A stretch of DNA of 64,000 bases from an uncultured delta proteobacterium (lineage in GTDB: Bacteria > Myxococcota_A > Polyangia > Polyangiales > Polyangiaceae): contig CAVOKF010000004.1 in assembly GCA_963696385.1 (NCBI GenBank), forward strand, positions 1,024,001-1,088,000. Reading direction: 5' to 3'. Shown piece by piece: positions 5,233 through 41,778 of this stretch. How positions within the stretch are numbered: position 1 is the first letter of the stretch; each line of letters starts with the position of its first letter. Under the pieces are notes generated by a model. The model made no database searches. It saw only the letters and a program-made list of their open reading frames with translations, and was not told the origin of the DNA. Position numbers and translations under genes: made by a program.

Positions 5233-5251
5233 GAGAAACTGTTGGCGCCCC

Positions 5252-14346: not shown

Positions 14347-14353
14347 GATCCGC

Positions 14354-16073: not shown

Positions 16074-17297
16074 TCAATGAGCGGCCCACTGCACGCTATC
16101 GAGGTCGATTCCCTCTTTGTGCATCTCGTAGAGCGGCGAAAGCTCGCGAAGGCGCGTCACCTTTTCGACCACCAGGTCGGCGACGTAGTCGACCTCCTCT
16201 TGCGTGTTGAAGCGGCCGAGACCGAAGCGGATGCTCGAATGGGCGAGCTCGTCGCCAACCCCGAGTGAGCGCAATACGTAGCTCGGCTCGAGGCTCGAAG
16301 ATGTGCACGCCGAGCCGGAACTCACGGCGACATCTTTGATGGCCATCATCAGACCTTCGCCTTCCACGAACTTGAAGCTCAGGTTCAGGTTGCCGGGCAG
16401 CCGGTGCTCGATCGACCCGTTCACGTAGACCTCGTCCAGTCTCTCCGTCACACGCGCGTGGAGCCGGTCTCGAAGGCTTCGCACGCGCGCCGACTCGGTC
16501 TTGCCCTCGTGCACGAGAATGTCGCACGCTTTTCCGAAACCCACGATCAGAGGCACAGCCAGCGTCCCCGACCGCATGCCCCTCTCGTGACCGCCACCGT
16601 CCATTTCGGCGACGACACGGACGCGCGGTCGGTTCCGCCGCACATAAAGCGCCCCGACGCCCTTCGGGCCGTAGATCTTGTGCGCCGAAAGGGACGCGAG
16701 ATCGACGTTCATCTTCTGGACGTCGAATTCGACCTTGCCGATGCCTTGCACGGCGTCGGTATGGAACAGAACGCCGCGGTCGCGCGTGAGCCGTCCGATG
16801 GCTTCGAGCGGCTGAACCGTGCCGATTTCGTTGTTGGCGAGCATCACGCTCACGAGGATGGTCCGCGAGCCGATGGCACGCTTCACGTCATCCGGATCGA
16901 CGCGGCCTTCCTTGCCGACGTCCAGGTAAGTGACCTCGTAGCCCTTCTTTTCGAGGCGCTTGCACGTGTCGAGCACGGCCTTGTGCTCGATCACGGTCGT
17001 GATGATATGGTTGCCCTTGTCCTTGTAAAACTCGGCCACGCCCTTGATGGCCAGGTTGTCGCTCTCCGTAGCGCCACTCGTCAGGACAATCTCCTTGGCG
17101 TCGCAACCACCGATGACGCGCGCGATGCGGTGACGTGCGCTCTCGATAGCTTCCTCCGCCTCCCAGCCGAACTTGTGACTTTTGCTCGCGGCATTGCCGA
17201 ACTTGGTGGTGAAGTACGGCCACATTTCGTCGAGCACGCGCGGGTCGACCGGCGTCGTCGAGTGGTTGTCCATGAAAATGGGGAGGTTCAAGGCCAT
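16074..17297 (-). CDS. iscS: cysteine desulfurase IscS
   Basis: [19 protein letters not shown]-terminal SPLYEM...QWAAH typical of IscS. Confidence 0.93.
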
Positions 17298-17493
17298 CGG
17301 CGGTCTCTGGGATAGAGGTCAACGAGATCGGGATCGACCCGCGGGTCCTCGCGAGGTCGGCTTTCGTACGATCGGTGGTCGTCAGGGAGGATCCACTGCA
17401 AGCCTCGGGCCCGATCCGAGAATGCAACGACGAGTCGAACGATTCGGCGTGTTTCTCGATTTGCGCCCATGCGGTTCTGCTGCGGGGTCCCGC

Positions 17494-18339
17494 TCATGGC
17501 CAACAGTCCTGGGGCGGCTCCGCCGAGCCCAGTGCGGCAAGGCGGATCCCCGCGGCCATTCGAACTTCCTGCTCGACGTCCTTGGCGAGGTGCCCTGCGA
17601 GTGCGCGGTCGGCGCGGCGGGCGACCTCCCAGCGAACCTCCCAAGCCGGGTCTTTTGCGAGGCGCCTCAGCAGAGCTGCACCGGCGCGCTCGGCGACGAG
17701 GCGACGCACGACCAGATCTTCGTCGCCGGCCAGCTGTTCGAGCAAGGCCGGCTGCACCCGGCGCGCAACCTCTTGCCGAACCTGGTCGTCTGGGTCGCCG
17801 GCCATCCGCGAGAGCCACTGGGGCGGCAGTCGCCGCGCGACCCAGGTTCGGACTCCGTAGTCGTCGTCGCAACAAAGGGCCGTCAGGAGACGTGGGGCGA
17901 GGCGCTGCGCAACCCGAATGCGCACCTCGCGATGCGGGTCCTTGGCCATGCGAACGAGCATTTTTTGAGGCAACCGCAGTGCGATCGATGCGCGCACGGT
18001 CTCGTCCGGATCGGTCATCAAGGCCGTGAGACGGAAGATCGTGGCGTGTCGCACAGAAATCGCCCGGACCTCGAAGTACGGGTGGCCGAGCCAAGCGTCG
18101 GCCGCGTCCGGATTCCAACGGAAGAATCGGTCCACCCGCCGCGCATAGCGATCCTGGACGCACGCGTGTCCGATCTGGCACGGCGCCCGATCGCGTTTGG
18201 ACGCGTGCGCGCATCGTGCACAGTCGACCGGTTGCCCCTCCCAGTCCACCGCCTCGGGCACGTCCCCTTGCGCGTCCGAGTCGACGGGCGGCCGCGTGGC
18301 GCCCCCTGAAGCTCTTCGCTTCATGGCCTCGCGCCTCAT
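17494..18339 (-). CDS. nif-associated 4Fe4S-binding leucine-rich variant (LRV) repeat protein, copy 1
   Basis: DW.GQPVDC..C.H...C..GHACVQDRYARRVDRFF; HPYFEVR; D.D..VR repeats; start uncertain. Confidence 0.85.
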   Translation of the reverse strand: MRREAMKRRASGGATRPPVDSDAQGDVPEAVDWEGQPVDCARCAHASKRDRAPCQIGHACVQDRYARRVDRFFRWNPDAADAWLGHPYFEVRAISVRHATIFRLTALMTDPDETVRASIALRLPQKMLVRMAKDPHREVRIRVAQRLAPRLLTALCCDDDYGVRTWVARRLPPQWLSRMAGDPDDQVRQEVARRVQPALLEQLAGDEDLVVRRLVAERAGAALLRRLAKDPAWEVRWEVARRADRALAGHLAKDVEQEVRMAAGIRLAALGSAEPPQDCWP

Positions 18340-18510
18340 CTGCCGCGTCAACGAAGTGGACTGAACGACGGCCGTACGCACACCGTCGCGCACGACATGG
18401 CTGCATTCGGGCTAGGGGACGGGATCGGGCGCGACATGAAAACCTTCGCTTCAGTCAGCTTTCGATCTGGCGCGGTCGGGGAGGCCAAAAGCTGCTTCTC
18501 CCAGAGGCTA

Positions 18511-18526
18511 CGCAATCGGTATGCCA
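18511..18526 (-). promoter_or_regulatory. sigma54 promoter for LRV1-iscS(-mop)
   Basis: TGGCAT-accga-TTGCG on the minus strand; NifA UAS TGT-N10-ACA at 18636-18651. Confidence 0.75.
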
Positions 18527-18775
18527 CGCCTCTTCGAACCGCGCCGCGCCGGCCGGTTTCGCGGTGGACCACGCGCCGGTGCACTGCCAGGCTGCGTGGT
18601 CTTCGCACGAAGAAGGAACGAGCCCGTGTCGCCTTTGTCGAGTTCACAACAATGCCGTCCCCCCCAGGAGATTCGTCTCATGCCGTGACCTCCAGGCCAT
18701 GGCCCGGAAACACGGGACAGCGAGAGAGAGAGCCTGCTTGCCGACCGGTGCCATGGGGTGCTCTGGTGTGACGCC

Positions 18776-19255
18776 ATGAAGGGCGACCCACGCATCATCG
18801 ATTTGCTCAACGAGATCCTCACCGGAGAGCTGACGGCGATCAACCAGTACTTTCTGCACGGCAAAATGTGCCTCAATTGGGGTTACCAGCATCTGGGCAA
18901 GAAGATTTACGAGGAGTCCATCGACGAGATGAAGCACGCGAACAAGCTCGTGGAGCGGGTCCTCTTCCTCGACGGTCTGCCGAACCTGCAGAAGCTCGAC
19001 AGGCTGAACATCGGTCAGACGGTCATCGAAATCCTGAAGAACGATCTCACGTTCGAGCTGGGTACCGTGCCGCGCCTCAACAAGGGCATTCAGCTTTGCC
19101 GCGACGTGGGCGACAACGGGAGCGAGCACCTTTTAACCGGCATTCTGGTGGACTCGGAGGGACACGTCGACTGGCTCGAGTCGCAGCTCGAGCTCGTGAA
19201 GCAGGCGGGCGAGGCCCAGTATCTTGCCCAGCAGATTCGCGAATCGTCCTCCTGA
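18776..19255 (+). CDS. bfr: bacterioferritin
   Basis: MKGD...ELTAINQYFLH...ESIDEMKHA. Confidence 0.95.
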   Translation: MKGDPRIIDLLNEILTGELTAINQYFLHGKMCLNWGYQHLGKKIYEESIDEMKHANKLVERVLFLDGLPNLQKLDRLNIGQTVIEILKNDLTFELGTVPRLNKGIQLCRDVGDNGSEHLLTGILVDSEGHVDWLESQLELVKQAGEAQYLAQQIRESSS

Positions 19256-19320
19256 ACACGAGACCCTGAACACGAGACCCTGAACACGAGACCCTGAACA
19301 CGAGACCCTGAACACGAGAC
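19251..19320. repeat. tandem repeat 5 x CCTGAACACGAGAC (14 bp)
   Basis: five perfect copies starting at the bfr stop codon. Confidence 0.95.
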
Positions 19321-19367
19321 GAAGGGTGGCCGTGCGGTTCTCCGGCGAGAACGCTACCCTGGACTTT

Positions 19368-19386
19368 GAAAATGCTTTTCACTATC
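19368..19386. promoter_or_regulatory. Fur-box-like site upstream of bfd
   Basis: GAAAATGCTTTTCACTATC, 14/19 to the GATAATGATAATCATTATC consensus. Confidence 0.55.
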
Positions 19387-19399
19387 CTTATCGAGTAGC

Positions 19400-19606
19400 A
19401 TGTACGTCTGCGTTTGCCGGGCAGTCACCGCGTGTGAGCTCAGGGCTGCGATCGACCGCGGGGCCACAACGGTGAAGACGGTCATCGAGCGCTGCGGTGC
19501 GGGAGATGACTGCGGTGCCTGTCATGGCGTCATCGAAGACATGATCGACGCGGGCATGCGATGCCTCGATCGGCCGCTCGGGACCGGGCGTGCTCCTGCG
19601 GCTTAG
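19400..19606 (+). CDS. bfd: bacterioferritin-associated ferredoxin
   Basis: MYVCVCRAVT...CGAC. Confidence 0.88.
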   Translation: MYVCVCRAVTACELRAAIDRGATTVKTVIERCGAGDDCGACHGVIEDMIDAGMRCLDRPLGTGRAPAA

Positions 19607-19769
19607 GCGTCGCCCATGAATTACGGACCTGTCCTCTCGCTCTCCCATATCGAGGAAAAGTCCGTCGGCACGCGCGGTCCTCAGAATTTCTCGACGTCGA
19701 TCGCGGGCCTTACGCACCGCGCAGTTAGGGGGGGAGCCGTGGCCCGCCCGCGAGCCATCGCCGCTCGAT

Positions 19770-20630
19770 TCAGGGCGTCGTCGCTATCGCGACCGTGCGA
19801 AGCTCCCCTTCGAGTGCGGGCTTGTGCGCGAAAATGGCCTCTACCACCGCAACCGCCAGTTCGCCATGGGAGGCTCCGGCGGTCGGAATCTGCTTCGCCT
19901 TCTCCGCCCGCGCAGGCGGTGCGAAGACGCTTTTGACAATGGTGGGCGAGCCGCGCAAGCCGCATTGGCCAAGATCAGCGATTCCGGCATCGACGGCACT
20001 CCACTTGACGACCTCGGCGCGCGCCGCGCGCAGGGCATCGCCAACCGTGCCTCGGCGGATTTCGTTCGTGCCCTCGAGCATCGTAATCAGGACCGGCAGG
20101 CGGCTCTGAAGCACCTGGGTGCCGCCTTCACCGCGACGCTGCACGCAGATGATGCCCGTCGAGCGGTCGAGGTCATCGATGCGCGAGACATAGGTGAGCT
20201 GGGTGAGCCCCAATCGCTTCGCGATCCCCGGCCCAACCTGCGCCGTGTCGCCGTCGATCGTCTGTTTGCCCGTGAACACAATCGACGGCGCTCCCCATGT
20301 CTCGGAGATCTTGCCGATGGCCGTCGCCAGAGCGTAGGTCGTCGCGAGCGTGTCCGAACCCGCGAACTGACGGTCGGTCAGAAGCACGGCACGGTCGGCG
20401 CCGAAGGTAAGCGCCTTGCGAAGCGCGTCCTCGGCCATCGCTGGACCCATGGTCAGGACGGTCACCTCTCCGCCAAGCCGGTCGCGGAGGACGAGGGCCT
20501 GCTCTAACGCAAAGAGATCGTAAGGGTTGATGATGGCCGGCACGCCCTGGCGCATGATGGTGTTGGTCACCGGATGCACGCGGATCTGAGCGCTGTCGGG
20601 GACTTGCTTCATGCACACGACGATTCGCAC
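19770..20630 (-). CDS. fixA: electron transfer flavoprotein beta FixA
   Basis: VVCMKQVPDSAQIRVHPVTNTIMRQGVP; GKQTIDGDTAQVGPG. Confidence 0.93.
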   Translation of the reverse strand: MRIVVCMKQVPDSAQIRVHPVTNTIMRQGVPAIINPYDLFALEQALVLRDRLGGEVTVLTMGPAMAEDALRKALTFGADRAVLLTDRQFAGSDTLATTYALATAIGKISETWGAPSIVFTGKQTIDGDTAQVGPGIAKRLGLTQLTYVSRIDDLDRSTGIICVQRRGEGGTQVLQSRLPVLITMLEGTNEIRRGTVGDALRAARAEVVKWSAVDAGIADLGQCGLRGSPTIVKSVFAPPARAEKAKQIPTAGASHGELAVAVVEAIFAHKPALEGELRTVAIATTP

Positions 20631-20632
20631 GG

Positions 20633-21943
20633 CTAGGCTCCCACCGCCGCGCGCACAGAGCGGGGGCCGATGACTTGCTTGTAGAACTCGAGGACCTCTG
20701 TGAGCCCGACGGGGTTCTTGGTAACGGCGGCTCTCGCACGAATCTGTTCGAGAACGAGAGCCACATCGCCCGGGGCGGCAACGACCCCCAACGAGCTCAG
20801 TGCGTGAGCGACCGCAGCGCGGCCCGAGTGCTTGCCGAGGACGATTCGGCGTGTTCGACCGAAGCGCTCGGGCCGCAGTGCCTCGTAGGACTGGGGGTCG
20901 CGCAGCAGGCCTGCGACATGAATGCCCGATTCGTGCGTGAAGGCGGCTGCCCCCACGATGGATTTGCCCTCCGGGATGGGGCGCCGTGCCGTCCGAGCGA
21001 CGAGCTCCGCCAACGCGGGCAGCTGATCGGTGCGAACGCGGGTCGTGCGGCCTGCGATTTCGTCGAGGGCCACAACGACCTCTTCGAGCGCGGCGTTGCC
21101 GGCCCGCTCGCCCAGCCCCAAGACACAAACGCTCACGTGGGTTGCGCCGCCCTGTACCGCGGCGAGCGTATTGGCGGTGGCCAAGCCCAGGTCGTCATGG
21201 CCGTGAAACTCAAGCTCCATGTCCGTCTCGCGGCAGAGACGGCGGAAAATGGAATACGCCTGGAACGGGTCGAGCACGCCGAGCGTGTCGGCGAAGCGAA
21301 ACCGGTGCGCCCCCGCGTCTTCCGCCGCCAGGACCACATCGCAGACGAAGTCGGAAGCGGCGCGGCTCGCGTCCTCGCCGCCCACCGAGACTTCGAAGCC
21401 GTGGTCGCGCGCGTAGCGGACCACGCGTCGAATTCGCGCGAGAACGTCGGCGTGCCTCTCTCCGAGCTTGGCCGCGATTTGGCGCTCGGAGACCGGCACC
21501 GATAGATGCACCCGGCGGAGGCCGGTATGCGTAGCCGCCTTGACGTCCGCCTCGGTCATACGGCACCACGCAATGGCCTGGGACCGATGGAGCGCCGTGC
21601 CAACCGCGGCGACGGCCTCGATTTCGGCGCGTCCCATGGCCGGAATCCCCGCTTCGATTTCTTCGACGCCGGCTTGCTCGAGGGCTCGCGCAATCGCCAC
21701 TTTCTCTTCGAGGTCGAACACGACTCCAGGCGCCTGCTCGCCATCACGTAGCGTGCTGTCGTTGACGACGACGAGCGGCGGCGCCATGCGCGAGACAAAC
21801 GATTGCACCCGATCGAGCGTGGCGGAGACGGCACTCGAGGATGCGCTCGTCGTTGGCTTGTCGGTGCGGCTTGCCCTTGTGCTGTCGGTCCGCGCGGCCT
21901 TGTCCTGCCGCTGGGTGGTCGGACGGTTCTTGCCGTGAATCAT
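20633..21943 (-). CDS. nifV: homocitrate synthase
   Basis: DSTLRDGEQAPG, HGHDDLG, THESGIH, LGKHSG; start uncertain. Confidence 0.92.
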   Translation of the reverse strand: MIHGKNRPTTQRQDKAARTDSTRASRTDKPTTSASSSAVSATLDRVQSFVSRMAPPLVVVNDSTLRDGEQAPGVVFDLEEKVAIARALEQAGVEEIEAGIPAMGRAEIEAVAAVGTALHRSQAIAWCRMTEADVKAATHTGLRRVHLSVPVSERQIAAKLGERHADVLARIRRVVRYARDHGFEVSVGGEDASRAASDFVCDVVLAAEDAGAHRFRFADTLGVLDPFQAYSIFRRLCRETDMELEFHGHDDLGLATANTLAAVQGGATHVSVCVLGLGERAGNAALEEVVVALDEIAGRTTRVRTDQLPALAELVARTARRPIPEGKSIVGAAAFTHESGIHVAGLLRDPQSYEALRPERFGRTRRIVLGKHSGRAAVAHALSSLGVVAAPGDVALVLEQIRARAAVTKNPVGLTEVLEFYKQVIGPRSVRAAVGA

Positions 21944-21978
21944 GGCGGTCGTTTCCTGTTCGGTATCGCCCCGGGTAA

Positions 21979-23286
<1,308 letters not shown>

Positions 23287-23388
23287 ACTCCGCTGCACCG
23301 CCGTCGGTCGGGGTCCTCCGGCCTCGGCCGGCGGCGCGCGCATTCGCTCCCTGTCTGATTCCCGTCTGAACGAAAAGAGAAACGTGCC

Positions 23389-24900
23389 ATGGGCCTCGAA
23401 TACTCGAACGATATCGAATTGCACAAGCGCCTCATCGCTCAGGTCCTCGAGGCGTATCCGGACAAGCTGAAGAAGAAACGCCAGAAGCACCTCGGCGTCG
23501 CCGCACCGGGAGCCCCCGCGGTCGGCTCGGAGCCAGAAGCCGATGAAGCGCATGCGGGGGGAACCGAGTGCGACGTCAAGTCCAACATCAAGTCCGTACC
23601 CGGTGTGATGACGATTCGTGGCTGCGCGTACGCCGGCTCCAAGGGCGTCGTTTGGGGCCCCGTCAAAGACATGGTGCACATCAGCCACGGGCCGGTCGGC
23701 TGCGGGCAATACTCGTGGTCGCAGCGGCGCAATTACTACATCGGCACGACGGGCATAGACACGTTCGTCACCATGCAATTTACGTCCGACTTTCAGGAGA
23801 AAGACATCGTCTTCGGTGGCGACAAAAAGCTCGAGAAGATCATCGACGAGATCAACGTTCTCTTCCCGCTCAACAAAGGGATCACGATCCAATCGGAGTG
23901 CCCTATCGGCCTCATCGGCGACGACATCGAAGCGGTCTCCAAGAAGAAGAACAAGGAAACGGGCAAGACCATCGTTCCGGTTCGCTGCGAAGGGTTCCGC
24001 GGAGTCTCCCAGTCGCTCGGGCACCACATCGCCAACGACTCGATTCGCGATTGGGTCTTCGACAAGCGGCCCGTGGAGCACGAGTCGACGCCGTACGACG
24101 TCAACGTTATCGGCGACTACAATATCGGTGGCGACGCGTGGTCGTCGCGCATTTTGCTCGAGGAAATGGGGCTGCGCGTAGTGGGCAACTGGTCCGGAGA
24201 CGCGACGCTCAGCGAGATCGAGCGGGCGCCCAAGTCCAAGCTCAATCTTATCCACTGCTACCGGTCGATGAACTACATCTGCAGGCACATGGAAGAGAAG
24301 TACGGCATGCCCTGGATCGAGTACAACTTCTTCGGCCCTTCGCAGATTTCCGACTCGATCCGCCGTATCGCCAATCTCTTCGACGACAAGATCAAAGAAG
24401 GTGCCGAGCGGGTGATTGCGAAGTATCAGCCTCTGGTCGACAAGATCATCGCGCGGTACCGCCCGCGCCTCGAGGGCAAGCGGGTGATGCTCTACGTCGG
24501 CGGCCTCCGGCCGAGGCACGTCATCACCGCGTACGAAGACCTGGGTATGCAGATCATCGGCACCGGCTACGAGTTCGGGCACAACGACGACTACCAGCGT
24601 ACAGGCCATTACGCCAAAGAGGGCACGCTCATTTACGACGACGTCACAGCCTTCGAGCTCGAGAAGTTCATCGAGACGCTGCGGCCCGACCTCGTGGGCT
24701 CGGGAATCAAAGAGAAGTACCCCGTACAGAAGATGGGCATTCCGTTTCGGCAGATGCATTCATGGGACTACTCGGGTCCGTACCACGGATACGATGGCTT
24801 CGCGATCTTCGCGCGCGACATGGACCTTGCCATCAATAACCCCGTCTGGAACTACTTCAAGGCGCCGTGGAAGGCCAAGGTCGCCGCGGCCGCCGAGTGA
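23389..24900 (+). CDS. nifD: nitrogenase MoFe protein alpha chain
   Basis: RGCAYAG, HGPVGCG, HCYRS (Cys ligand), MHSWDY (His ligand), GYEF. Confidence 0.99.
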
Positions 24901-25109
24901 GTGCACTCGACTGACTTGTCTTCGCTTCGCAAGCGGGCCCCGCGGAAGCGGGGCGCCGGGGCCTCGTGAGCGCGCACAGTGGCTTGCCCGCGCGGCATGG
25001 CTCGCGCCGCCGCCACCCGTATCCCTCTGAAATCGATTGGACGACTCACGTGTAAGAAGGCGGTCGCGAAGGGCGACGCCCCGTTTCCAGGAAAGCCGAG
25101 GATTTGGTC

Positions 25110-26645: not shown

Positions 26646-26728
26646 CGCGGCCCTCCGGTGCCGTCTGATCGACGGGCGCCCGTGGATTGCCCTGGTCTGC
26701 TGCCGTTTTGCCCTTTGAGGAGGACCCT

Positions 26729-28199
26729 GTGAGCGATGCACTGAAGGTCAAGATCGCCGATGTCTTCAATGAGCCCGGTTGCGAAAAGAACAAGGACAAA
26801 GGGGCGAAAGAGAAGAAGAAGGGGTGCTCCAAAGCGCTCACTCCCGGCGCCGCCGCAGGGGGTTGCGCATTCGACGGGGCAAAGATCGCGCTTCAGCCGA
26901 TTACCGACGTCGTGCATCTGGTGCACGGGCCTCTGGCCTGCGAAGGCAACGGATGGGACAATCGCCACGCCGCGAGCTCGGGGCCAACGACCTACAGGCA
27001 GGGGTTCACGACGGACATTTCCGAGATGGACATCGTGATGGGCAATGGCGAAAAGCGCCTTTACCGCGCGATCAAGGAAATCGTCAGCAAAGTACGCGCC
27101 GCCGGCCATTTTCGTCTATTCGACCTGCGTCACCGCGCTCATCGGAGACGACCTCGATGCCGTGTGCAAGCACGCGACCGAGAAATATGGAACGCCCGTC
27201 GTACCGGTGAACGCGCCGGGGTTCGTCGGATCGAAGAACCTCGGAAATAAACTCGGAGGCGAGGCCCTGCTCGACCACGTCATCGGAACGATCGAGCCCG
27301 ACGACGTGACGCCGCTCGATATCAATATTCTGGGCGAATACAACCTGTCGGGCGAGCTTTGGCAGGTCCTGCCGCTGTTCGAAAAGCTCGGGATCCGGGT
27401 ACGCGCGTGCATCACCGGCGATGCCCGCTACAAGGACGTAGCGTCGTCCCACCGCGCAAACGTCAATATGATGGTGTGCTCGACGGCGCTCATCAATCTG
27501 GCCCGCAAGATGGAGGAGCGGTACGGGATTCCGTACTTCGAGGGGTCGTTCTACGGGATCGAAGACACGTCGACGGCGCTCCGCACCACGGCGCGGATGC
27601 TGGTCGAACGCGGAGCGCCCCCGGACCTTCTGGCACGTACCGAAGCGCTCGTCGCGGCCGAGGAGGCGCGGGCCTGGGCCCGCATCGGCTCGTTCAAGGA
27701 ACGACTTCAGGGAAAGCGCGTGCTGCTCTACACGGGAGGCGTCAAATCTTGGTCGGTCGTGTCCGCTCTGCAGGAGATGGGCATGATCGTCGTGGGAACG
27801 TCGGTCCGCAAGTCGACCAAGGAGGACAAGGAGCGCATCAAAGAGATCATGAAAGGCGACCCGCACTTGGTCGAATCGATCCCACCGCGCGAGATGTACG
27901 CCCAGTTGAAGAGGGGCGATGCCGACATTTTGCTCTCGGGCGGACGCACGCAATTCGTGGCGCTCAAGGCCAAGATGCCCTGGCTCGATATCAACCAAGA
28001 ACGGCACCACGCGTATGGGGGATACGACGGGATGGTGGAGCTCGTCCGACAGCTCGACCTCGAGATCAATAGTCCGATCTGGGACGACGTGCGCCGGCCG
28101 GCGCCATGGGACTGCCCGGCCCCGAACGCGAGGCGAGACTCACAGGAGGGTGCGAAGGCGGACCGTGCGATGTCCCTCGCATCCACCGCTCGGAGCTAG
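26729..28199 (+). pseudogene. nifE: FeMo-co scaffold NifE, split by a +1 frameshift at 27089-27091
   Basis: GGCAFDGAK...IKEIVS in one frame and KYAPPAIFVYSTC... in the next; deleting one A from 'agcaaagtac' restores the reading frame. Confidence 0.9.
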
Positions 28200-28203
28200 C
28201 GCC

Positions 28204-30067: not shown

Positions 30068-30166
30068 CGGTTCAAGGATGGCGCGTTTGTGGGATACCGC
30101 ACGTTCTCTTTGTTGCACTCATGACACCGCACTGCGCGAAATGCGTCGGAGCGCAGGTTTTTCGCT

Positions 30167-30182
30167 TGGCGCGAGGATTGCT
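30167..30182 (+). promoter_or_regulatory. sigma54 promoter for the nifB operon
   Basis: TGGCGC-gagga-TTGCT; UAS at 30111-30126. Confidence 0.78.
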
Positions 30183-30235
30183 CGTCTCTCGTGGCATCGT
30201 TTTTCCTGGACCCTCACCCTAAGGCGTAAACCCAC

Positions 30236-31840: not shown

Positions 31841-32645
31841 CGAGGCCAGGGATAGGTCGAAGCCTTCCGAGTCGCGGCGCGACGAAGCCGACGACATTGG
31901 CGAAAAGGTCGATTGGCTCGGCCAGCCCGTCCGTTGCTCGGATTGCCCTCACCACGGGCTTCGCGACGTGGGGGGCTGCCAGGAGGGCCGCGCGTGCGTG
32001 CGCGATCGATGCGCGCGCCGCGTGGACCGCTTTTTCGCGAGTCAGCCCGAGCTGGCCGACGAGTACCTCGACCACCCGTACTTCGAGGTCCGCACGGTCG
32101 CTGCGAAGTACGCGAGCGTCTTCCGGCTGCCGGTCCTGCTCCACGACGCCGAGCCGGAGGTCCGGGCCATCGCCGTGTTGCGCCTTCCGGAGCGACAGGC
32201 GGCGCAGCTACGCCGCGAGCCGGACCGCCGCGTGCGCCTGGCCGTGGCGAGCCGCATAGCGGGCGCTCTGCTGCTCGAGATGCTTTCCGACGAGGACTAC
32301 GCGGTGCGGGCCATGGTCGTTCGGCGGCTGCCGGCGGCCAGCCTCATTCTCGCCGTGGACGACCCGGAGCCTGAAGTGCGACGGTGGGTCGCGCGTCGTA
32401 TCCCCGAGGAGCAGCTCGGGTACCTCGCGACCGACACGGAGCCGCTCGTGCGTCTCGAGGTCGCGCGTCGGCTTGCCCCCGAGCTTCTCCAGGGGCTCGC
32501 GAAGGACGAGGATTTGCGCGTCCGCTTCACGGTCGCGGAGCGGATCGAGGCCAAGCATCTGTCGCTCTTGGCTTTCGACCGGGACGAAGCCGTTCGCCAG
32601 GCGGTGCATCGGCGACTCTGCGAAGGCCAATCGGAGGAACAATAG
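31830..32645 (+). CDS. 4Fe4S-binding LRV repeat protein, copy 2
   Basis: DWLGQPVRCSDCPH...RRVDRFF; HPYFEVR. Confidence 0.87.
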   Translation: MSRNEARDRSKPSESRRDEADDIGEKVDWLGQPVRCSDCPHHGLRDVGGCQEGRACVRDRCARRVDRFFASQPELADEYLDHPYFEVRTVAAKYASVFRLPVLLHDAEPEVRAIAVLRLPERQAAQLRREPDRRVRLAVASRIAGALLLEMLSDEDYAVRAMVVRRLPAASLILAVDDPEPEVRRWVARRIPEEQLGYLATDTEPLVRLEVARRLAPELLQGLAKDEDLRVRFTVAERIEAKHLSLLAFDRDEAVRQAVHRRLCEGQSEEQ

Positions 32646-32647
32646 TC

Positions 32648-32977
32648 ATGGGACTCGGCAAAGAAGAAGAGGTCGAGATACGGGCGAACCCCCTGTTTAT
32701 GCCGGGGACCAAGGTCGTATCGATCCGGTACGTGAAGAACGACGGCACGTTCGCCGGGCGCGACGTGGGCGAAGTTCTCGTGCGAAAGGGAGATGTCGGG
32801 TACGTCCGGGACATCGGGACGTTTCTTCAGCGCTATTACATTTACGCCGTGGAGTTCATCGAAACGGGCGTGGTCGTAGGGATGCGAGGGCGGGAATTGG
32901 AAGCCCTGGATGCGACCGGCAAACCGATCAAGCGACCGAAAACCACTCGCGTCGTCGAGGAGATTGAACCGCAATGA
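32648..32977 (+). CDS. nifZ: NifZ
   Basis: NDGTFAG..VGEVLVRKGDVGYVRDIGTFLQ..YIYAVEF. Confidence 0.93.
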   Translation: MGLGKEEEVEIRANPLFMPGTKVVSIRYVKNDGTFAGRDVGEVLVRKGDVGYVRDIGTFLQRYYIYAVEFIETGVVVGMRGRELEALDATGKPIKRPKTTRVVEEIEPQ

Positions 32978-33195
32978 AAGTCCTCATTCGCAGGTCGGCA
33001 GCGGGACTGTCGGCGTACGTTCCCAAGAAGGATCTGGAAGAGGCGATCGTCGCCGTCGAGCACGAGGGCTTGTGGGGCGGGTGGGTCCGTCTGAAGAACG
33101 GGTGGACGCTCGACCTACCCGTGATGGCGCCGGAGACGCGGCTGCCCATCACCGTGAATGCCAAAAAACGCGGTGCAGAACCCGAGGAATCGTAA
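32974..33195 (+). CDS. nifT: NifT/FixU
   Basis: MKVLIRR...YVPKKDLEE...WGG...LPITV. Confidence 0.93.
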   Translation: MKVLIRRSAAGLSAYVPKKDLEEAIVAVEHEGLWGGWVRLKNGWTLDLPVMAPETRLPITVNAKKRGAEPEES

Positions 33196-33278
33196 ACCCG
33201 TACCGGCGAGGCAGGATGGCACGTACCGAGTGTACGGCATCGCGCCTGCGCGGGTGCTTCTCAACGTGGAGTGGTCAA

Positions 33279-33671
33279 ATGGCGGCGAGCAAAATCAGCA
33301 TTGAAGGCGCGGGTTCGGTGATCATCAGTGAAGGGGCGGAGAAGTTCATGCGACGCATGACCCGCTTCGGTGGGCTGGGCCCTGGCGCCGGCTTTCGACT
33401 CGTCGTCAGCCCCGGGGGCTGCTCGGGACTGAGCGCCGAGTTCAGCATCGAGCAAGCGGCAAAACTCGGGGACGAGACGCTCGCGCTCAACGGGCTGCCC
33501 GTCTTTGTGCCTCCGCACAGCGCGAAGCTCTTGGCGGGCGTGACCATCGACTTCGTCGACACGCCGACGCAACAAGGGCTCACGTTCTACAATCCGAATG
33601 CGTCTTCGTCGTGCTCGGACAGTGCACGGCCCGCGGTCGTCCAGTTGTCCGAGCTGGTCACGCGCCCGTGA
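33279..33671 (+). CDS. HesB/IscA-like A-type carrier (atypical C-terminus)
   Basis: FRLVVSPGGCSGL; TIDFVD; single C-terminal Cys. Confidence 0.8.
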   Translation: MAASKISIEGAGSVIISEGAEKFMRRMTRFGGLGPGAGFRLVVSPGGCSGLSAEFSIEQAAKLGDETLALNGLPVFVPPHSAKLLAGVTIDFVDTPTQQGLTFYNPNASSSCSDSARPAVVQLSELVTRP

Positions 33672-33708
33672 AGCGCTTCCCCGAAGAAAGGCGGCTTTTG
33701 CGCGAACC

Positions 33709-34875
33709 ATGAAGACGGTTTACCTCGACAACAACGCGACTACGCGAGTCGACCCCGACGTCGTCCTAGCGATGCTTCCATTCTTCACGGAGCAGTATGG
33801 CAACCCGTCGTCGATCCACGCATTCGGCGCGTCGGTCGGCGGCGCGATCAACGGGGCTCGCCGTAGCGTTCAAGCGCTCCTGGGCGCCCAATTCGACCAC
33901 GAGATTGTGTTCACCTCGGGTGGAACCGAGTCCGACAGCACCGCACTCCTCTCGGCCCTCGAAACGGCTGACGGGCGCAACGAGATTGTGACCACCGCCG
34001 TCGAGCATCCGGCCATCCTCGCCCTCTGCAAGCACCTCAGCGACACGCGGGGCGTGAAGGTCGTGCTCGTGCCAGTCGATTCCGCCGGTCGTCTCGACCT
34101 CGACGCCTATCGGAAGGCGCTCGGTCCCCAAACGGCCATCGCCTCCGTCATGTGGGCGAACAACGAGACGGGAACGTTGTTTCCTATTCCGCTGCTGGCC
34201 GAGTGGGCCCACGAAGCGGGGGCCTTGTTCCACACGGACGCCGTGCAGGCGGTCGGCAAAGTCGCCATTTCTTTGAAGAGCACGCAGATCGACATGCTCT
34301 CGCTGTCCGGCCACAAGTTTCACGGCCCCAAGGGCGTCGGAGCCCTCTTCGTCCGGCGTGGAACACGGCTCCGGCCCATGCTGCGCGGCGGTCACCAGGA
34401 ACGCGCGCGGCGCGCGGGAACGGAAAACACCGCCAGCATCGTGGGGCTTGGCAAAGCCGCCGAGCTCGCCGCAGAAAGACTGCAAGGCGAGCAGACCCGC
34501 GTGCGTGCGCTGCGCGACCGACTGGAGACGGCTCTGCTCGCCCGCATCGCCGGCACTCTCAGCGTGGGCGACCGAGAGCACCGGCTGCCCAATACGTCCA
34601 ACGTCGCGTTCGAGTTTCTCGAAAGCGAAGCACTCCTCGTCCACCTGAGTCGCGCCGGAATTGCGGCTTCCTCGGGTTCCGCCTGCACGTCGGGTTCGAT
34701 GGAGCCGTCGCACGTGCTCCGGGCCATGAACGTCCCCTTTACGGCGGCTCACGGCGCCGTTCGGTTCTCCTTTTCACGGGACAACGACGACGCGGACGTC
34801 GACCGCGTGCTCGAAGTGATGCCCGGCATCGTTGAAACGCTGCGCGAAGGATCTTCCATCGGGACGGACGGGTGA
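33709..34875 (+). CDS. nifS: cysteine desulfurase NifS
   Basis: [42 protein letters not shown]. Confidence 0.93.
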   Translation: MKTVYLDNNATTRVDPDVVLAMLPFFTEQYGNPSSIHAFGASVGGAINGARRSVQALLGAQFDHEIVFTSGGTESDSTALLSALETADGRNEIVTTAVEHPAILALCKHLSDTRGVKVVLVPVDSAGRLDLDAYRKALGPQTAIASVMWANNETGTLFPIPLLAEWAHEAGALFHTDAVQAVGKVAISLKSTQIDMLSLSGHKFHGPKGVGALFVRRGTRLRPMLRGGHQERARRAGTENTASIVGLGKAAELAAERLQGEQTRVRALRDRLETALLARIAGTLSVGDREHRLPNTSNVAFEFLESEALLVHLSRAGIAASSGSACTSGSMEPSHVLRAMNVPFTAAHGAVRFSFSRDNDDADVDRVLEVMPGIVETLREGSSIGTDG

Positions 34876-34942
34876 GACCGTTCCGCCGTCGTTGCCCGCT
34901 TCCCCGTGAGGCCGCCACTCCCTTTGTTCTGGGGCGGTGTAC

Positions 34943-35308
34943 TTAGGTCCCCGTCAAGCGGCCCTTGGTGTACTTGCCGCGCTCTTTGGGGTGTTCGTTT
35001 TCGTAGGCCTCGAGACTCTCGGAGGCAATCTCCAGTTCAATCGTGCCTTCTCCGGTCACGCGGGCTTGGCACCCGAGTCGAGACGTTGCCCGTACGTCGA
35101 ATGCCTTGTCGAGCGCATCGGACTCCTCGTTCTGCTCGGCGCTGAGCAGCTCGGCCCCTCGCGCAACGTACACGTGGCAGGTGGAACAGGCGCACGCGCC
35201 GCCGCAGGCGCTGCCTACGGGAGCGCGTGCCTTCGTCGCAGCGTCGAGCACGGACGTGCCAGCGCCGACGGTCACCTCGCCGAAGCCCGCAAAGCGAATC
35301 GTCGCCAT
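34943..35308 (-). CDS. fdx: ISC-type 2Fe-2S ferredoxin
   Basis: ACGGACACSTCHVYV; SRLGCQ. Confidence 0.9.
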   Translation of the reverse strand: MATIRFAGFGEVTVGAGTSVLDAATKARAPVGSACGGACACSTCHVYVARGAELLSAEQNEESDALDKAFDVRATSRLGCQARVTGEGTIELEIASESLEAYENEHPKERGKYTKGRLTGT

Positions 35309-37221
35309 CAGCCGAGCTCTTGCGGGTGTGGGCCGTGGGCGTACTCGACGCCCTTGGCGTGCTCGACAGTCCGCGCGATCGCGTCCACGCGCTGACCCCC
35401 AATCGCGCGGGCCATCGCGCGATTCATTCGCCGCGCGGCGAACGCCTTGGTGGCTTCATCCAGCGCATCGATGCTGGCCTGAATGAGCGACGGCTGCTCG
35501 CCGCGCGAGGCTTGCTCGAGTTTCGCGTACGCCCGCTCGATCCTCTCCCTCTCTGCAACGTCGAGCAGGTCCGCATCGGAGTCGATTGCCTTCTGCGTCG
35601 CCAGGAGAATTCGAGCCGCCTCCACGCGATTCTCCGCCAGTCGCCGCCGGTTCAAGTCCTCCTCGCCGTGGTCGAGCGCCTCGGTGAGCATCCGTTCGAC
35701 GGTCGCGTCGTCGAGCCCGTAAGTGGGTCGGACCGTGACCTTCTGCTCGATGCCGGTCGTCGATTCCTTCGCGTGCACGCCGAGAAGACCGTCCGCGTCG
35801 ACCTGGAATTTGACTTCGAGGCGCGCCATTCCGGCGGCCATCGGCGGGATCCCTTTCAGGGTGATGCGCGCGAGACTTCGGCTGTCCGCGACGAGTTCGC
35901 GTTCGCCCTGGACCACGTGAATATCGAACCCGGTCTGGTTGTCTTCTTGCGTCGTGTAGGTGGCGCGAGCGGCGCAGGGGATCGACGAGTTGCGCGCCAG
36001 GATCTTATCGACGACGCCGCCTCCCACTTCGATTCCGAGCGATAGGGGGATCACGTCGAGCAGGAGCACGTCTTCCCGCCGCCTCGGGCCCGCCAACAGA
36101 TCCGCCTGGACGGCGGCGCCGAGCGCCACGACGCGGTCCGGGTCGATGTCGGCGAGCGGTTCTTTGCCGAAAAGCGCCCCCACATACCGTCTCACGAGCG
36201 GAACACGCGTCGCCCCACCCACGAGGATGACCCCATCGAGATCCTTCGGCGCCAACCCCGCGTCCTTCAGCGCGCGGCGACAGGCCACCCCCGTGCGCTC
36301 GAGAAGCGGGCCGATCAGCTCTTCGAACCCCCGGCGATGGACCACGACACGCCCGTGGCCGGCGACTTCGACTTCCACTTCGTCCTGGGTCGTCAGTTCG
36401 TGCTTGACCTTGCGCGCCTGGTCGAGGACCCATCGAACGAGTTGCGGCGTCTGCCGGGCAGAATCCAGCCCGACTTTCTCGAGAAGGTGGTGAGCGATGG
36501 CGCGATCCATGTCGTCGCCTCCAAGCTGGCTGTCGCCGCCGGTCGATCGCACCTGAAAGACGCCGTCGTCCAGCACAAGCACCGTGACGTCGAACGTCCC
36601 GCCGCCCAAGTCGTAGACCGCGAAGGTGCCATTCTGTTTCTTCTCGAGGCCGTACGCCAGAGCGGCTGCCGTCGGCTCGTTCAGGAGCCGCAACACGGTG
36701 AGCCCCGCAAGCCGTGCCGCGTCTTTGGTGGCCTGGCGCTGCGCGTCGTCGAAGTAGGCGGGCACGGTGATGACCGCGCCCCCGACGTTCTGAAGCTCGT
36801 CCTCGGCGAGGGCCTTGAGAGCGCGGAGAATTTCCGCGCTGACTTCGACGGGCGTGACCACTCGCCCGTCCGCAACCCGGAATCGGACCGTGTTCGACTG
36901 ACCCGGCTTGGGAGCGACAAATTCGTAGGGGCCGAGGCGCCGCGTTTCAGCGTCGTCGTTGCCGCGGCCCATCATTCGCTTCACGCTCACGATCGCGTCG
37001 CGCGGATGGTGGCTCGCAAATTCCGCCGCGAGACGCCCGACGATCACGTCACCGGCGGGCAAGTACGCGACGACGCTTGGAAGGAGGACGACCGAATCGC
37101 AATCGGCGATGGCGACGGGCCGCTCGTTCGTCACGTGGGCGACCAGCGAATGGGTCGTTCCCAGATCGATTCCGATCGGCCGCGGGGGCGCTTTGGGATC
37201 GAAGATCTCGAGCAATGCCAT
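35308..37221 (-). CDS. hscA: Fe-S assembly chaperone HscA
   Basis: [32 protein letters not shown] operon context. Confidence 0.93.
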
Positions 37222-37306
37222 TGGAACACCATCGCGGGGGATCCGCGCTCTGCCAGGTTTGTCGTCCGGTCTCTCGCCTCGCTCGAGCCTGCCGGCTCCA
37301 AGCCGA

Positions 37307-37816
37307 CTACGTAAGCTCGTCTTCGATGGCGCCTACTTCGTCCAGAAAGCGCCGGTAGAATCTCAACTTGCCGAGTTTGCCGACGAGGGGCTCGCATAGC
37401 CCGCTGGCGAGGCCGTCGCAGAGCTCTCGCTCCGTTTTGGTCCAGCGCGCCCGGACACCCTCGGCGAGGCTCGAAACCGCCTGTCGATCACGCGCGTCTT
37501 TCGCGTTCGACAGGGCTTCGCGCTGCTCGAGCATCTCCATGAGAAACTCCGGCTCGGGATTCGGCTCGCGGTCGTCGCCAAGGGCGATCCCGCTCAACGC
37601 AAGGAGGGCCTCGGCGCGCCGGAGCGGGTCGCGAACGATTCGCCACGCCTCGTTCACCTCGACCGCTCTGGCGAGCGCCTCTCGCCTCACGCCGGCGGTG
37701 GTCGCGAGGTGGCGGTCGGGGTGAAGCACCCGCGACAGCTCGCGATGGGTCTTTTCGAGCGCCCGCATGTCCACATCGTAGCGGCGAGCAATGCCGAGGG
37801 TCGCGAATGGGTCCAT
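37307..37816 (-). CDS. hscB: co-chaperone HscB
   Basis: J-domain [14 protein letters not shown]. Confidence 0.92.
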
Positions 37817-37831
37817 AGCGAGCGTGTCTCC

Positions 37832-38230
37832 TCACACGGTAAACGAATTGCCGCAGCCGCAGCTGCTCTTCTCGTTCGGGTTGGCGAACTTGAACCCCTG
37901 ATGCATCAGCGTCTGTTCCCACACGAGCTCCGACCCGTTCAAATAGAGGAGGCTCTTTGGGTCGACGAGGACGCGCACATGGCTTCCGTCAGTCGCCACG
38001 CAATCGAGCACGTGGTCGCGCTCGTGCGGGGGGCCGTCGTGGTACTCGATCACGTACGAAAAGCCGGAACAGCCCCCTCCGCGAATCCCGACCCGCAGAC
38101 TTCCCTCCGGGGTGTGGCGCTTCTGCATCTGGCGAGCAATGACGTCGACCGCCGGTTGCGAAACGGAAATGCCGGGCAGCTTCGAGTCCGGGCCCCGCAC
38201 GTGCCCAGGCGCCTCGACGACGGATTCCAT
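37832..38230 (-). CDS. iscA: IscA
   Basis: GGGCSGFSY; NPNEKSSCGCGNSF. Confidence 0.9.
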   Translation of the reverse strand: MESVVEAPGHVRGPDSKLPGISVSQPAVDVIARQMQKRHTPEGSLRVGIRGGGCSGFSYVIEYHDGPPHERDHVLDCVATDGSHVRVLVDPKSLLYLNGSELVWEQTLMHQGFKFANPNEKSSCGCGNSFTV

Positions 38231-38235
38231 GGCGT

Positions 38236-38655
38236 TCACTCGCCGACGCGGGCGACATCCGCGATGGCCACGCGCTCCGACTGTTTTTTGCGGTAGTCCG
38301 CGATGGCGCTCTTGATCGCGTCTTCGGCGAGCACCGAGCAGTGAATTTTCACCGGGGGCAAGTTCAGTTCGTCCACGATCGCCGAATTCTTGATGCTCGC
38401 GGCCTCGTCCACCGTCTTGCCCTTGATCCACTCGGTGGCGAGCGACGAGCTCGCGATGGCCGATCCGCAGCCGAACGTCTTGAACTTCGCGTCTTCGATG
38501 ACGCCTTGCTCGTTCACCTTGATCTGCAATCGCATCACGTCACCGCAGGCGGGCGCCCCGACGAGCCCCGTGCCGACGCTGGGATCGGCCTTGTCGAGCG
38601 TCCCGACGTTGCGCGGATTCTCGTAATGCTCGATGACTTTCTCGCTGTATGACAT
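38236..38655 (-). CDS. iscU: Fe-S scaffold IscU
   Basis: GAPACGD, FGCGSAIASSS, LPPVKIHCS; single domain. Confidence 0.95.
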   Translation of the reverse strand: MSYSEKVIEHYENPRNVGTLDKADPSVGTGLVGAPACGDVMRLQIKVNEQGVIEDAKFKTFGCGSAIASSSLATEWIKGKTVDEAASIKNSAIVDELNLPPVKIHCSVLAEDAIKSAIADYRKKQSERVAIADVARVGE

Positions 38656-38714
38656 GGCTCGACCCTTTGTGGCTGAGATTCTTCGCCTCGCACGCAATTC
38701 AAATGGGCGACTCA

Positions 38715-39458
38715 TCAGGTGCAGTCGCTCGCGGCGCCCGTGTAATTCTTGACGCGCTCGCCTTCGGTGGCGCCGAGAATCTTGGCGAGCCACGGCGGGG
38801 GCGACTTGGCAAGCACGCGCTGCAAGTCGGTCAGAATCGCTCGCGCCGGACCGCCGTCGGGAACGGGAAGCAAATGAATGTCCGCCTTGATCACTTTGGC
38901 GGCCGCGGGGCCACCGATCGAGACGATGTAGAGAACTCGGCAGTCTCGAATGAGGTCGACGCGAAAGGCGTTCTTGTCGCCCGAAGCATCGGCTTGTGCG
39001 GCGGACCGGATGTCGATCAGGCGAATCTCGGAAGCCGACACCTGGTAGACGAGATAGAAACAGGCCGACCCGAAGTGGCCGTTCAACTCTTCGCCGCGGT
39101 TCGATGCCATGGCGACGCGAACCGACCGCGGCATGTCTCCATCTGTGTAGGCCTCGATGATCCGTGCGTCGTCTTTGCCGGCTTCTCCCCAGAGAATCCG
39201 CACGGCCTCTTTGAACGCCGCCATGTCGGCGGTGCGGTATTGTTCGCTCCCGTCCTCTTCGCCATCGAGATTGTACGAACCACCGAACGACGCTTTGAGG
39301 TTCGCCACCGTGACCCGGCTCAAGGCCGCTTCGTCAAGCTCGTCGCCGAGGCACGTGTGCAAGGCATCAATCAGGCTCGGCAGAGGAACGTCGTGCAAAG
39401 CCTTTGCGGCAAACGCAATTCTCAAGGCGACGTCGTTGGTAATGGCTGCTTCGGGCAT
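38715..39458 (-). CDS. NifY/NafY-like FeMo-co protein
   Basis: N-terminal ALRIA.AA domain plus NifX-like HFGSA domain. Confidence 0.8.
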   Translation of the reverse strand: MPEAAITNDVALRIAFAAKALHDVPLPSLIDALHTCLGDELDEAALSRVTVANLKASFGGSYNLDGEEDGSEQYRTADMAAFKEAVRILWGEAGKDDARIIEAYTDGDMPRSVRVAMASNRGEELNGHFGSACFYLVYQVSASEIRLIDIRSAAQADASGDKNAFRVDLIRDCRVLYIVSIGGPAAAKVIKADIHLLPVPDGGPARAILTDLQRVLAKSPPPWLAKILGATEGERVKNYTGAASDCT

Positions 39459-39536
39459 GATTCCGATCCTCCTCTTCCGATGCGCATCGGGTCTTCGAGT
39501 CGCTTCTCGCTAGGTCGAAGCCGGTCGTGTCATTTT

Positions 39537-39731
39537 TCAGGCGGGCACGCAGGTGTCGGCCACCGGACAGACCGCGGCGCATTGCGCGGTGTCGAAGTGG
39601 CCTTCGCACTCGGTGCATAGTTTCGGGTTAATGACGTACATTTCGTTCTTGAGCGAGATCGCAGCATTGGGGCATTCGAACTCGCACGCACCGCACACGG
39701 TGCACTGGGATGCGACAATCTTGTAGGCCAT
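39537..39731 (-). CDS. fdxN: nif 2[4Fe-4S] ferredoxin
   Basis: [12 protein letters not shown]...CTECEG...CAAVCP. Confidence 0.9.
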
Positions 39732-39742
39732 GGGAAACCTTC

Positions 39743-40075
39743 TCAGTCCTTGTGTTGTAGAGCGGTGAGCCTTACGAACGGCGGTGGTTGGGGGACCTTT
39801 TCTTTGACCGCGTCCTTGTGAACTTTGAACACGCGCTGGTCGATGGGCGACCGAGCGACGAAGTCGTCATAGGCCATTTGCAGGTGGGCGCGGCAGCGCT
39901 CGCGCACCAGGCCCTCGCCCAGCCCGGCCAACGGCTCCTTGGCGAGGTACTCGCCCATGCGTCGAAGAATGTGCAGACGCGCGACGTTGACGACGCCGAC
40001 TTCGAAGGGCACATCGAGGTAGACAAAGATCTCTTCGGCAGACGAGAGCCGGCGCAGGTCATCGAGTACACTCAT
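39743..40075 (-). CDS. nifW: nitrogenase-stabilising protein NifW
   Basis: LSSAEE...VNVARLHIL...VFKVH. Confidence 0.9.
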
Positions 40076-40118
40076 CTTCGTCTCTTCTCCGTTGGAACTC
40101 GGTTGCGGTCGCGGCCGG

Positions 40119-40439
40119 TCAGCCGAACGATTTGCCGCAGGCGCAGCTCGACGTTGCATTCGGATTGATAAATGTGAATCCGGCGCCTTCGGCGCTGACG
40201 AGGAAATCCACCGTCACCCCCTGGAGAAGGGGCGCGCTGGACGCGTCGACAAATACTTTGATCTCGCCCTTTTCGACGGTCACGTCGCCGGGCAGCGGCT
40301 CGGCGACGAGCCCCATCATGTATTTGTTGCCGGCGCAGCCCCCCGTCTCCACCATGAGGCGGAGGCCCTGGACGGGTGCGTTGGAACCGGCGATTGCCGT
40401 ACGAATGGCGTTTGCAGCGCTGTCGGTGATTTCGATCAA
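40119..40439 (-). CDS. nif-type IscA (HesB family)
   Basis: GGCAG.KY; NPNATSSCACGKSF. Confidence 0.88.
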   Translation of the reverse strand: MIEITDSAANAIRTAIAGSNAPVQGLRLMVETGGCAGNKYMMGLVAEPLPGDVTVEKGEIKVFVDASSAPLLQGVTVDFLVSAEGAGFTFINPNATSSCACGKSFG

Positions 40440-40492
40440 GGCATTCTCCTTTCGCCCCGCCGCCTACGATTGGGGCGACGTGACGGCCCTAT

Positions 40493-40508
40493 CGCAACGG
40501 ACGTGCCG
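40493..40508 (-). promoter_or_regulatory. sigma54 promoter for iscAnif-nifW-fdxN-nifY-iscUA-hscBA-fdx
   Basis: CGGCAC-gtccg-TTGCG; UAS at 40582-40597. Confidence 0.78.

Positions 40509-40713: not shown

Positions 40714-41778
<1,065 letters not shown>

Follow-up and report, generated by a model that had tools for sequence, protein, structure and literature searches.

How are the iron–sulfur (Fe–S) clusters of nitrogenase built in a diazotroph whose nif gene cluster holds no nifU? The desulfurase NifS and the scaffold NifU are the textbook source of these clusters, and the general iron–sulfur cluster (ISC) machinery is regarded as a weak stand-in for them. The question is raised by a stretch of 64,000 nucleotides, hereafter the window, from an uncultured member of the Polyangiaceae (G000:C4:1024001-1088000, from a genome, G000, of 6.94 Mb in 8 contigs that is 96.4% complete). 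It carries a nif cluster of the proteobacterial type (nifHDKENXB, a second nifH, nifA, nifV, fixABCX and mod genes), in which nifU is missing and a set of isc genes is found. We conclude that this set, a copy derived from the host's own genus, probably builds the nitrogenase Fe–S clusters in place of NifU.

The isc genes lie on the minus strand in two units. The first begins with iscA(nif) (40119–40439), followed by nifW (39743–40075), a gene for a fdxN-type 2[4Fe–4S] ferredoxin (39537–39731) and a nifY/nafY-like gene with DIMCO_N and Nitro_FeMo-Co domains (38715–39458); after a gap of 59 bp come iscU (38236–38655), a host-type iscA for an A-type carrier (37832–38230), the co-chaperone gene hscB (37307–37816), the chaperone gene hscA (35308–37221) and fdx (34943–35308), which encodes an ISC-type [2Fe–2S] ferredoxin. 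The second holds iscS (16074–17297; 407 residues), 17,646 bp away from the end of fdx and behind an LRV-FeS gene (open reading frame 17494–18393, with the start probably near 18339). On the plus strand, nifS (33712–34875; 387 residues) directly follows a gene for a HesB/IscA-family A-type carrier (33318–33671, start approximate). The features given in the original prediction are all present, and its coordinates are right.

Compared with the host's housekeeping copies, sequence identity amounts to 90% for IscU (over 130 residues), 81% for IscS, 76% for HscA and 58% for HscB. IscS scores 654 bits against TIGR02006 (cut-off 643) and 670 against NF010611 (cut-off 548), IscU 229 against TIGR01999 (cut-off 192), HscA 795 against TIGR01991 (cut-off 709) and HscB 76 against TIGR00714 (cut-off 47). 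IscA and Fdx fall under the IscA and fdx_isc equivalog cut-offs (81 versus 151 and 75 versus 132, respectively) but share 74% and 73% identity with their counterparts in the corresponding positions of the host isc operon. IscU is a single-domain scaffold of 139 residues comprising only NifU_N, and retains C37, D39, C63, H105 and C106 as well as LPPVK, which we take to be the motif recognized by the chaperone. IscS retains its pyridoxal phosphate (PLP) lysine and catalytic cysteine. By membership, the nif-linked set is an ISC system and not a NIF system. The window's NifS scores 587 bits against TIGR03402 (cut-off 531).

No nifU lies in the window, as noted in the original prediction, and none was found in the rest of the genome. 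PF01592 yields two matches in G000, both single-domain IscU, and PF01106 yields one stand-alone frame of 106 residues; a three-domain NifU (IscU-like, central 2Fe–2S and Nfu) was found neither in G000 nor in the 30 other genomes of the genus, and all three domains were recovered in the relative G143, which served as positive control. Likewise, no SufB/D of the SUF system was found in G000, and no SUF in G305, G310, G314, G319 and G143. The housekeeping isc operon that the original prediction proposed to look for is present in full on contig C5.

At the head of this housekeeping operon, ahead of iscS, lies a gene for a MerR-family protein with a conserved, cysteine-rich tail (L026:5209-5799), and iscR is not there. 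The MerR-family gene precedes all 22 housekeeping isc operons examined, from five genera, and one of the four nif-linked copies described below. It is a candidate for an Fe–S or metal sensor occupying the position that iscR has in Escherichia coli; the word "MerR" does not occur in the text of the Myxococcus xanthus RisR paper. In G000, iscR is absent from both isc copies, and a single Rrf2 gene, on another contig, exceeds the cut-off. The isc operon of M. xanthus also lacks iscR (PMC9973013). Since the host operon and that of M. xanthus both do without iscR, its absence is not a defining feature in this phylum and is uninformative on splicing; the original prediction was right about the absence, but it is the loss of the MerR-family gene that is informative. 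A CyaY/frataxin gene (L026:3482-3808) is located upstream of the housekeeping merR-isc unit, at a distance of about 1.4 kb, and none was noted in the nif cluster.

We surveyed 383 genomes of the family with the window's HscA as query, scoring three candidates per genome. Matches were obtained in 316 genomes, and two matches in four, G000, G305, G314 and G319, all from the same genus. In each of these the second hscA copy sits in a nif cluster, and all four genomes are nif-positive and NifU-less. NifD is found at E 1e-200 in 19 of the 383 genomes, 12 of which fall into a class above 840 bits. Outside the genus, all seven genomes of this class have NifU above the cut-off, against none of the 31 within it, five of which (the four named and G310) have nifD. 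The NifU-bearing family genomes are G143, G140, G014, G248, G273, G342 and G366; five of the seven give one hscA match, and G143 (contig end) and G248 (72% complete) give none at the cut-off. One of them, G366 (L195), is a single-contig genome of 12.4 Mb with the same nitrogenase type and would be a useful NifU-positive control.

Gene order offers a view of the swap itself. The NifU-bearing clusters read iscA(nif)-nifU-nifS. In G319, iscA(nif) abuts nifS at the position of the relatives' nifU, and a whole merR-isc unit stands between nifB and nifH. In G305 and G314, all six isc genes are intact behind nifY, and in these two as in G319 iscS lies directly ahead of iscU; the MerR-family head gene has been lost in three of the four nif-linked copies. 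As the operon is whole in the other three genomes, the split between iscS and iscU, noted in the original prediction, is a late rearrangement particular to G000. The nifY–iscU junction of the window is repeated in two metagenome contigs, L201 and L223 (99.9% and 99.8% identical to the window). They are the two loci matching the window junction at >99.7% among 23 metagenome loci found with NifY; three others show nifY–iscS, one of them perhaps G305's own contig, and the remainder mostly have other neighbors or end too soon.

To place the duplicate, we built a tree from the six ISC proteins with 25 rows, two proteobacterial rows and G143 having been excluded as long branches; versions with 28 rows were also run. 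The four nif-linked copies form one clade (100/100) inside the clade of the genus (100/100), beside the housekeeping operon of G322 (99/98). The trees show the nif-linked set to be a duplicate of a housekeeping operon of this genus, and in this respect the original prediction of host-type genes placed in predicted NifA/sigma54 operons at the loss of nifU is borne out. A recent duplication within the genome was rejected, as pairing with the own housekeeping copy fails the approximately unbiased (AU) test for G000 (p = 3.7e-5) and is likewise rejected for G319. The trees also reject a proteobacterial origin. A single clade with nif-linked ISC copies of beta- and gamma-proteobacteria is rejected when housekeeping proteobacterial rows are included (AU p = 5.5e-7); without these rows p is 0.22, and the constraint then only moves the root.

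The NifD tree gives the same order for the four genomes, with G319 branching first and G000 and G314 joining last, a join that is weak in the ISC tree. A single clade of the hosts' own housekeeping copies and those of the nearest nif-less sisters was rejected (p = 0.004), and G311, the closest relative of G000 and listed as 100% complete, has no nifD; the nif cluster with its ISC genes therefore likely moved sideways within the genus or was lost many times. Among the nif-linked copies, the ratio of nonsynonymous to synonymous rates (dN/dS) is 0.06–0.12 for iscS and 0.03–0.05 for iscU at dS values of 0.7–2.5, similar to the housekeeping copies, which shows purifying selection.

Both ISC-bearing units have predicted sites for sigma54 and NifA. 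Before iscA(nif), a sigma54-type −24/−12 site lies at 40493–40508 (minus strand), with NifA-type upstream activator sites (TGT-N10-ACA, no strand) at 40582–40597, common to the divergent second nifH, and at 40700–40715; before LRV-iscS, the corresponding sites lie at 18511–18526 (minus strand) and 18636–18651 (no strand). Both motifs are over-represented in the window, which contains 14 sigma54-type matches with one mismatch (against a mean of 5.9 in shuffled sequences, 2 of 100 of which reached this number) and 15 TGT-N10-ACA sites (against a mean of 4.8, with the number reached in 0 of 100). The proximal sites before iscA(nif) are identical in G314 (a 15-mer for the sigma54 site) and near-identical in G305, where the activator site has one mismatch. 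In G143, G140 and G014, iscA(nif)-nifU-nifS is headed by this same arrangement, so the ISC genes appear, from these predicted sites, to be under the promoter that serves nifU in relatives. Within 450 bp before 18 housekeeping iscS genes there are one weak sigma54-like and one activator-like site, never both; this region mostly holds the MerR-family gene and is thus a poor control. The activator gene nifA itself lies at 56127–57923 (plus strand).

Five metatranscriptome (RNA) runs from three studies contain part of the operon, and four of them (X1, X2, X3 and X5) were compared. Contigs from X1, with 0–3 differences, span 39965–40464, 38923–39994, 38422–38952 (bridging nifY–iscU), 37853–38344 (iscU–iscA), 35182–35505 (hscA–fdx) and 33448–34746 (hesB–nifS), and tile the region from 40464 to 37853 apart from a gap of 77 bases. 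X3, from another study, adds 38936–39632 and 37277–37537. iscS has RNA cover in all four runs, with two studies represented; cover of hscA and hscB is partial. As a check for DNA carry-over we used 19 bins of 2600–15158 (98% likeness), with depth in five bins for X1 (never above 1.3), in two for X5 and in none for X2 or X3, although missing cover proves nothing by itself.

NifU unites three domains, one serving as scaffold, one resembling a ferredoxin and an Nfu carrier (PMC13066941), and we infer that the nif-linked set would work like NifS/NifU. From ISC biochemistry, IscS would supply sulfur to IscU, Fdx would supply electrons and thereby cover the job of the middle domain of NifU, and HscA/HscB would release the cluster from IscU. 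IscA and three nif A-type carriers would then pass [4Fe–4S] clusters to NifH, NifB, NifEN, NifQ and apo-NifDK, the job of the Nfu domain, and NifS would be retained but likely undocked from a U-type scaffold. Such a path has precedents, as excess co-expressed isc genes can mature NifH in E. coli (PMC10746259) and ISC can do so in yeast mitochondria (PMC4855529). The present arrangement may have arisen in three steps: deletion of nifU from iscA(nif)-nifU-nifS and insertion of a whole merR-isc unit (the G319 state), loss of merR and joining of the operon behind nifY (G305 and G314), and a move of iscS behind LRV with a predicted promoter of its own (G000).

Several points weigh against a NifU-replacing role. 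IscU of Azotobacter replaces NifU only partly (PMC11605450). G310 (95% complete, 180 contigs) has nifD, nifS and one isc operon but neither nifU nor a second ISC set, so the duplicate may be dispensable. Over the six proteins, nine substitutions separate the four nif-linked copies from 18 housekeeping ones, too few to establish specialization; a few C-terminal IscU columns also separate the nif-linked copies, in a part that the alignment does not cover in the housekeeping rows. The four genomes represent one event, not four. For the G319 copy, no sigma54 site lies within 450 bp of iscS, and only a weak one precedes merR, and the RNA contigs attest presence only, without strand, start, level, single transcript or nitrogen status. 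Finally, one extra base near 27086, compared with G305, G314 and G319, interrupts nifE in the window (26687–28199); it is either an error, perhaps from long reads, or a real break.

Some of these points would suit a different explanation, in which the housekeeping ISC system already matures nitrogenase and the nif-linked copy merely adds general Fe–S capacity, for FixABCX, ferredoxins or repair under oxygen, being neither needed for nitrogenase nor adapted to it. Besides the state of G310, the small number of nif-specific substitutions and the housekeeping-like dN/dS, it could draw on Paenibacillus, where a general SUF system serves nitrogenase (PMC8038749), and on the predominance of NifUS in aerobic diazotrophs, which has been rationalized by cluster demand (PMC13066941). 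We consider it unlikely, however, for strong selection has kept the duplicate in each of the four genomes of this nif lineage across synonymous distances of about 1 or higher, and none was seen in the seven NifU-bearing genomes. Moreover, the nif genes of G310 are a separate, deeper lineage (NifD 82%) in a fragmented assembly. NifS is most eroded in that genome (L094, L095, L200), which also carries additional nifD/nifE-like genes on other contigs.

Which desulfurase would feed IscU if the nif-linked set does replace NifU? The original prediction proposed a chimeric NIF–ISC pathway, and in its strict form NifS would give sulfur to the host-type IscU, so that NifS together with IscU, HscA/HscB and Fdx would rebuild the NifS–NifU pair. 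The proposal could appeal to an intact nifS whose product exceeds the NifS cut-off and which is present in RNA contigs, to the detachment of iscS from iscU in G000, and to the loading of IscU by Azotobacter NifS in vitro (PMC11605450, methods). In E. coli, the IscS–IscU contact involves residues 309–316, 347 and 379–391 of IscS, and deletion of residues 376–404 abolishes binding (PMC2854127). In an alignment of 13 NifS proteins, the eight partnered by NifU show no variation in a helix motif and in the C-terminal tail; both are changed in the five NifU-less ones, in which the PLP lysine and catalytic cysteine are kept. When the E. coli contact is mapped onto NifS, 200 columns are invariant in NifU-partnered NifS, 18 of them in the docking segments or tail. 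NifS of the window is changed at 10 of these 18 columns versus 10 of the 182 elsewhere, and the other four NifU-less proteins at 9–13 of 18 versus 9–25 of 182. With the tail excluded, columns altered in three or more genomes number 6 of 14 in the docking segments versus 11 of 182 elsewhere. These counts come from columns and genomes that are non-independent, and the region was spotted before testing.

All four nif-linked IscS proteins, on the other hand, retain the IscU-contact segments that NifS has lost, which makes IscS–IscU likely the working pair, and iscS stands directly before iscU in three of the clusters. Together with the erosion of the contact-matching segments in all five NifU-less NifS proteins, this leaves the strict chimera very unlikely. 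It is likely that ISC replaced NifS/NifU as a unit, with no NifS–IscU chimera, and that NifS, judged from its eroded segments, no longer docks a U-type scaffold and either serves another acceptor or is drifting. A second desulfurase without the same docking segments is found in Paraburkholderia BN5, in a nifB-LRV-nifZ operon, and nifS is likewise placed here. It is extremely improbable that mis-assembly or a chance insertion brought the isc genes next to nif and that a NifA-independent promoter of their own drives them: indel-type breaks in the assembly and the host regulator gene kept by the G319 copy would fit, but the nifY–iscU junction is found again in two other contigs and in an RNA contig, three other genomes and three additional contigs show the nif–isc linkage too, and the search yielded no sigma70-type site in 33000–41000, no internal promoter at nifY–iscU and no terminator-like site in the 59-bp gap.

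The nif-linked set shares its six components and their conserved catalytic and ligand residues with the housekeeping iscSUA-hscBA-fdx systems of E. coli, Azotobacter and M. xanthus, and differs in being a second, nif-resident copy behind predicted NifA/sigma54 sites, with iscS split off in G000. With the NIF system of Azotobacter vinelandii and the NifU-bearing Polyangiaceae it would share the job, and it shares the iscA(nif) operon head and a retained nifS; in contrast, the scaffold, ferredoxin and carrier roles fall here to separate ISC proteins with ATP-dependent chaperones, and no Nfu domain is present in the cluster. Paenibacillus polymyxa WLY78 is also a diazotroph without nifU on a general Fe–S system, but that system is SUF and not a nif-resident duplicate (PMC8038749).

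The arrangement is not unique to this locus. Nif clusters of beta- and gamma-proteobacteria contain iscS-iscU-A-type-hscA-fdx with a sigma54 site upstream, as here; the order is iscS-iscU-erpA-iscA-(hscB)-hscA-fdx-nifV-nifW, often without hscB, and HscA is about 50% identical to that of the window. We found them on two plasmids (pBN1 of Paraburkholderia aromaticivorans BN5 and one of Methylococcus sp. EFPC2) and at six loci among the 80 BN5-HscA matches listed, the loci including Hydrogenophaga, Curvibacter, Herbaspirillum and Ideonella; a sigma54 site precedes iscS in six of the eight. On the trees these operons are of separate origin; in the present case, by contrast, the host genus is the donor and intermediate states can be seen. 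An operon with hscBA in the nif regulon of Leptospirillum ferrooxidans has reportedly been described as well. Related reports include nifU, nifS and hsc genes among seven NifA/sigma54 operons of Herbaspirillum seropedicae (PMC3093359), isc genes near nif in group G7 of a survey (PMC11773926), hscA and erpA with nifS but without nifU on a mine-drainage fosmid (PMC3912193), and a Steroidobacteraceae genome without nifS and with a full isc set (PMC11613949). Nif-resident ISC is not mentioned in the parts drawn on of PMC9628965, PMC8593673, PMC2682760 and PMC8305402, and in the literature covered, with subscription papers and supplements outside its scope, we found no description of the myxobacterial case, of the replacement of nifU by a duplicate of host origin or of the loss of the NifS docking site.

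A more far-reaching scheme can be put forward tentatively. The nif-linked set may be a nitrogenase-dedicated ISC machine, a naturally occurring bacterial counterpart of mitochondrial ISC, that together with IscA, the three nif A-type carriers and a YgfZ/IBA57-like protein fully matures NifH, P-cluster and precursors of the iron–molybdenum cofactor (FeMo-co) without NifU or Nfu; undocked NifS could be a scaffold-independent sulfur donor in a nifB-LRV-nifZ operon, and this state might have been reached twice, in myxobacteria and in beta-proteobacteria. We regard the scheme in full as possible, though rather doubtful. Its YgfZ/IBA57-like component, a family name that we assume, is a GcvT-fold protein with a KGCY-x-GQ motif encoded just before nifA (54803–55795, plus strand), with matches in G319, G314 and G305; it is a possible accessory of the nif-linked ISC pathway, and a distant paralog (33%) lies on contig C3.

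Elsewhere in the window, a bacterioferritin gene and one for a Bfd-like ferredoxin (18758–19580) adjoin the LRV-iscS promoter and possibly relate to iron supply; the former is the sole bfr match in the genome, and such genes also occur near the G319 cluster. A sigma54-led run at 51341–54783 encodes a third A-type carrier, a truncated globin, a ferredoxin–rubrerythrin fusion, a rubrerythrin-like protein, dodecin and a thioredoxin-like ferredoxin, and likely serves oxygen protection. The two nifH copies (22378–23286 and 40870–41778) encode the same protein as far as compared, and the LRV-FeS, nifZ and nifX-like genes are also duplicated. Near 15000 the mod genes look broken, and an intact modC lies at 44385–45485. 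The stretch 1200–13000 is patchy and non-nif, with short repeats common to G311, a PIN-domain gene (4828–5232), an RHS core fragment (8850–9233) and a LysR regulator. DNA comparison with G311, the nif-less genome closest to G000, revealed no clean insertion site at the island borders, and no tRNA gene was found in the 20-kb flanks.

In this lineage NifU appears to have been dropped and a nif-resident ISC copy kept by selection, and sister genomes show the steps of the exchange. The erosion of NifS suggests that a nif desulfurase has a role independent of a scaffold. The matched pairs found here, nif-linked and housekeeping copies that are 58–90% identical and docked and undocked NifS, would allow one to ask whether NifU owes its specificity to dose or to sequence. 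The question matters for the engineering of nitrogenase in mitochondria, which themselves use ISC.

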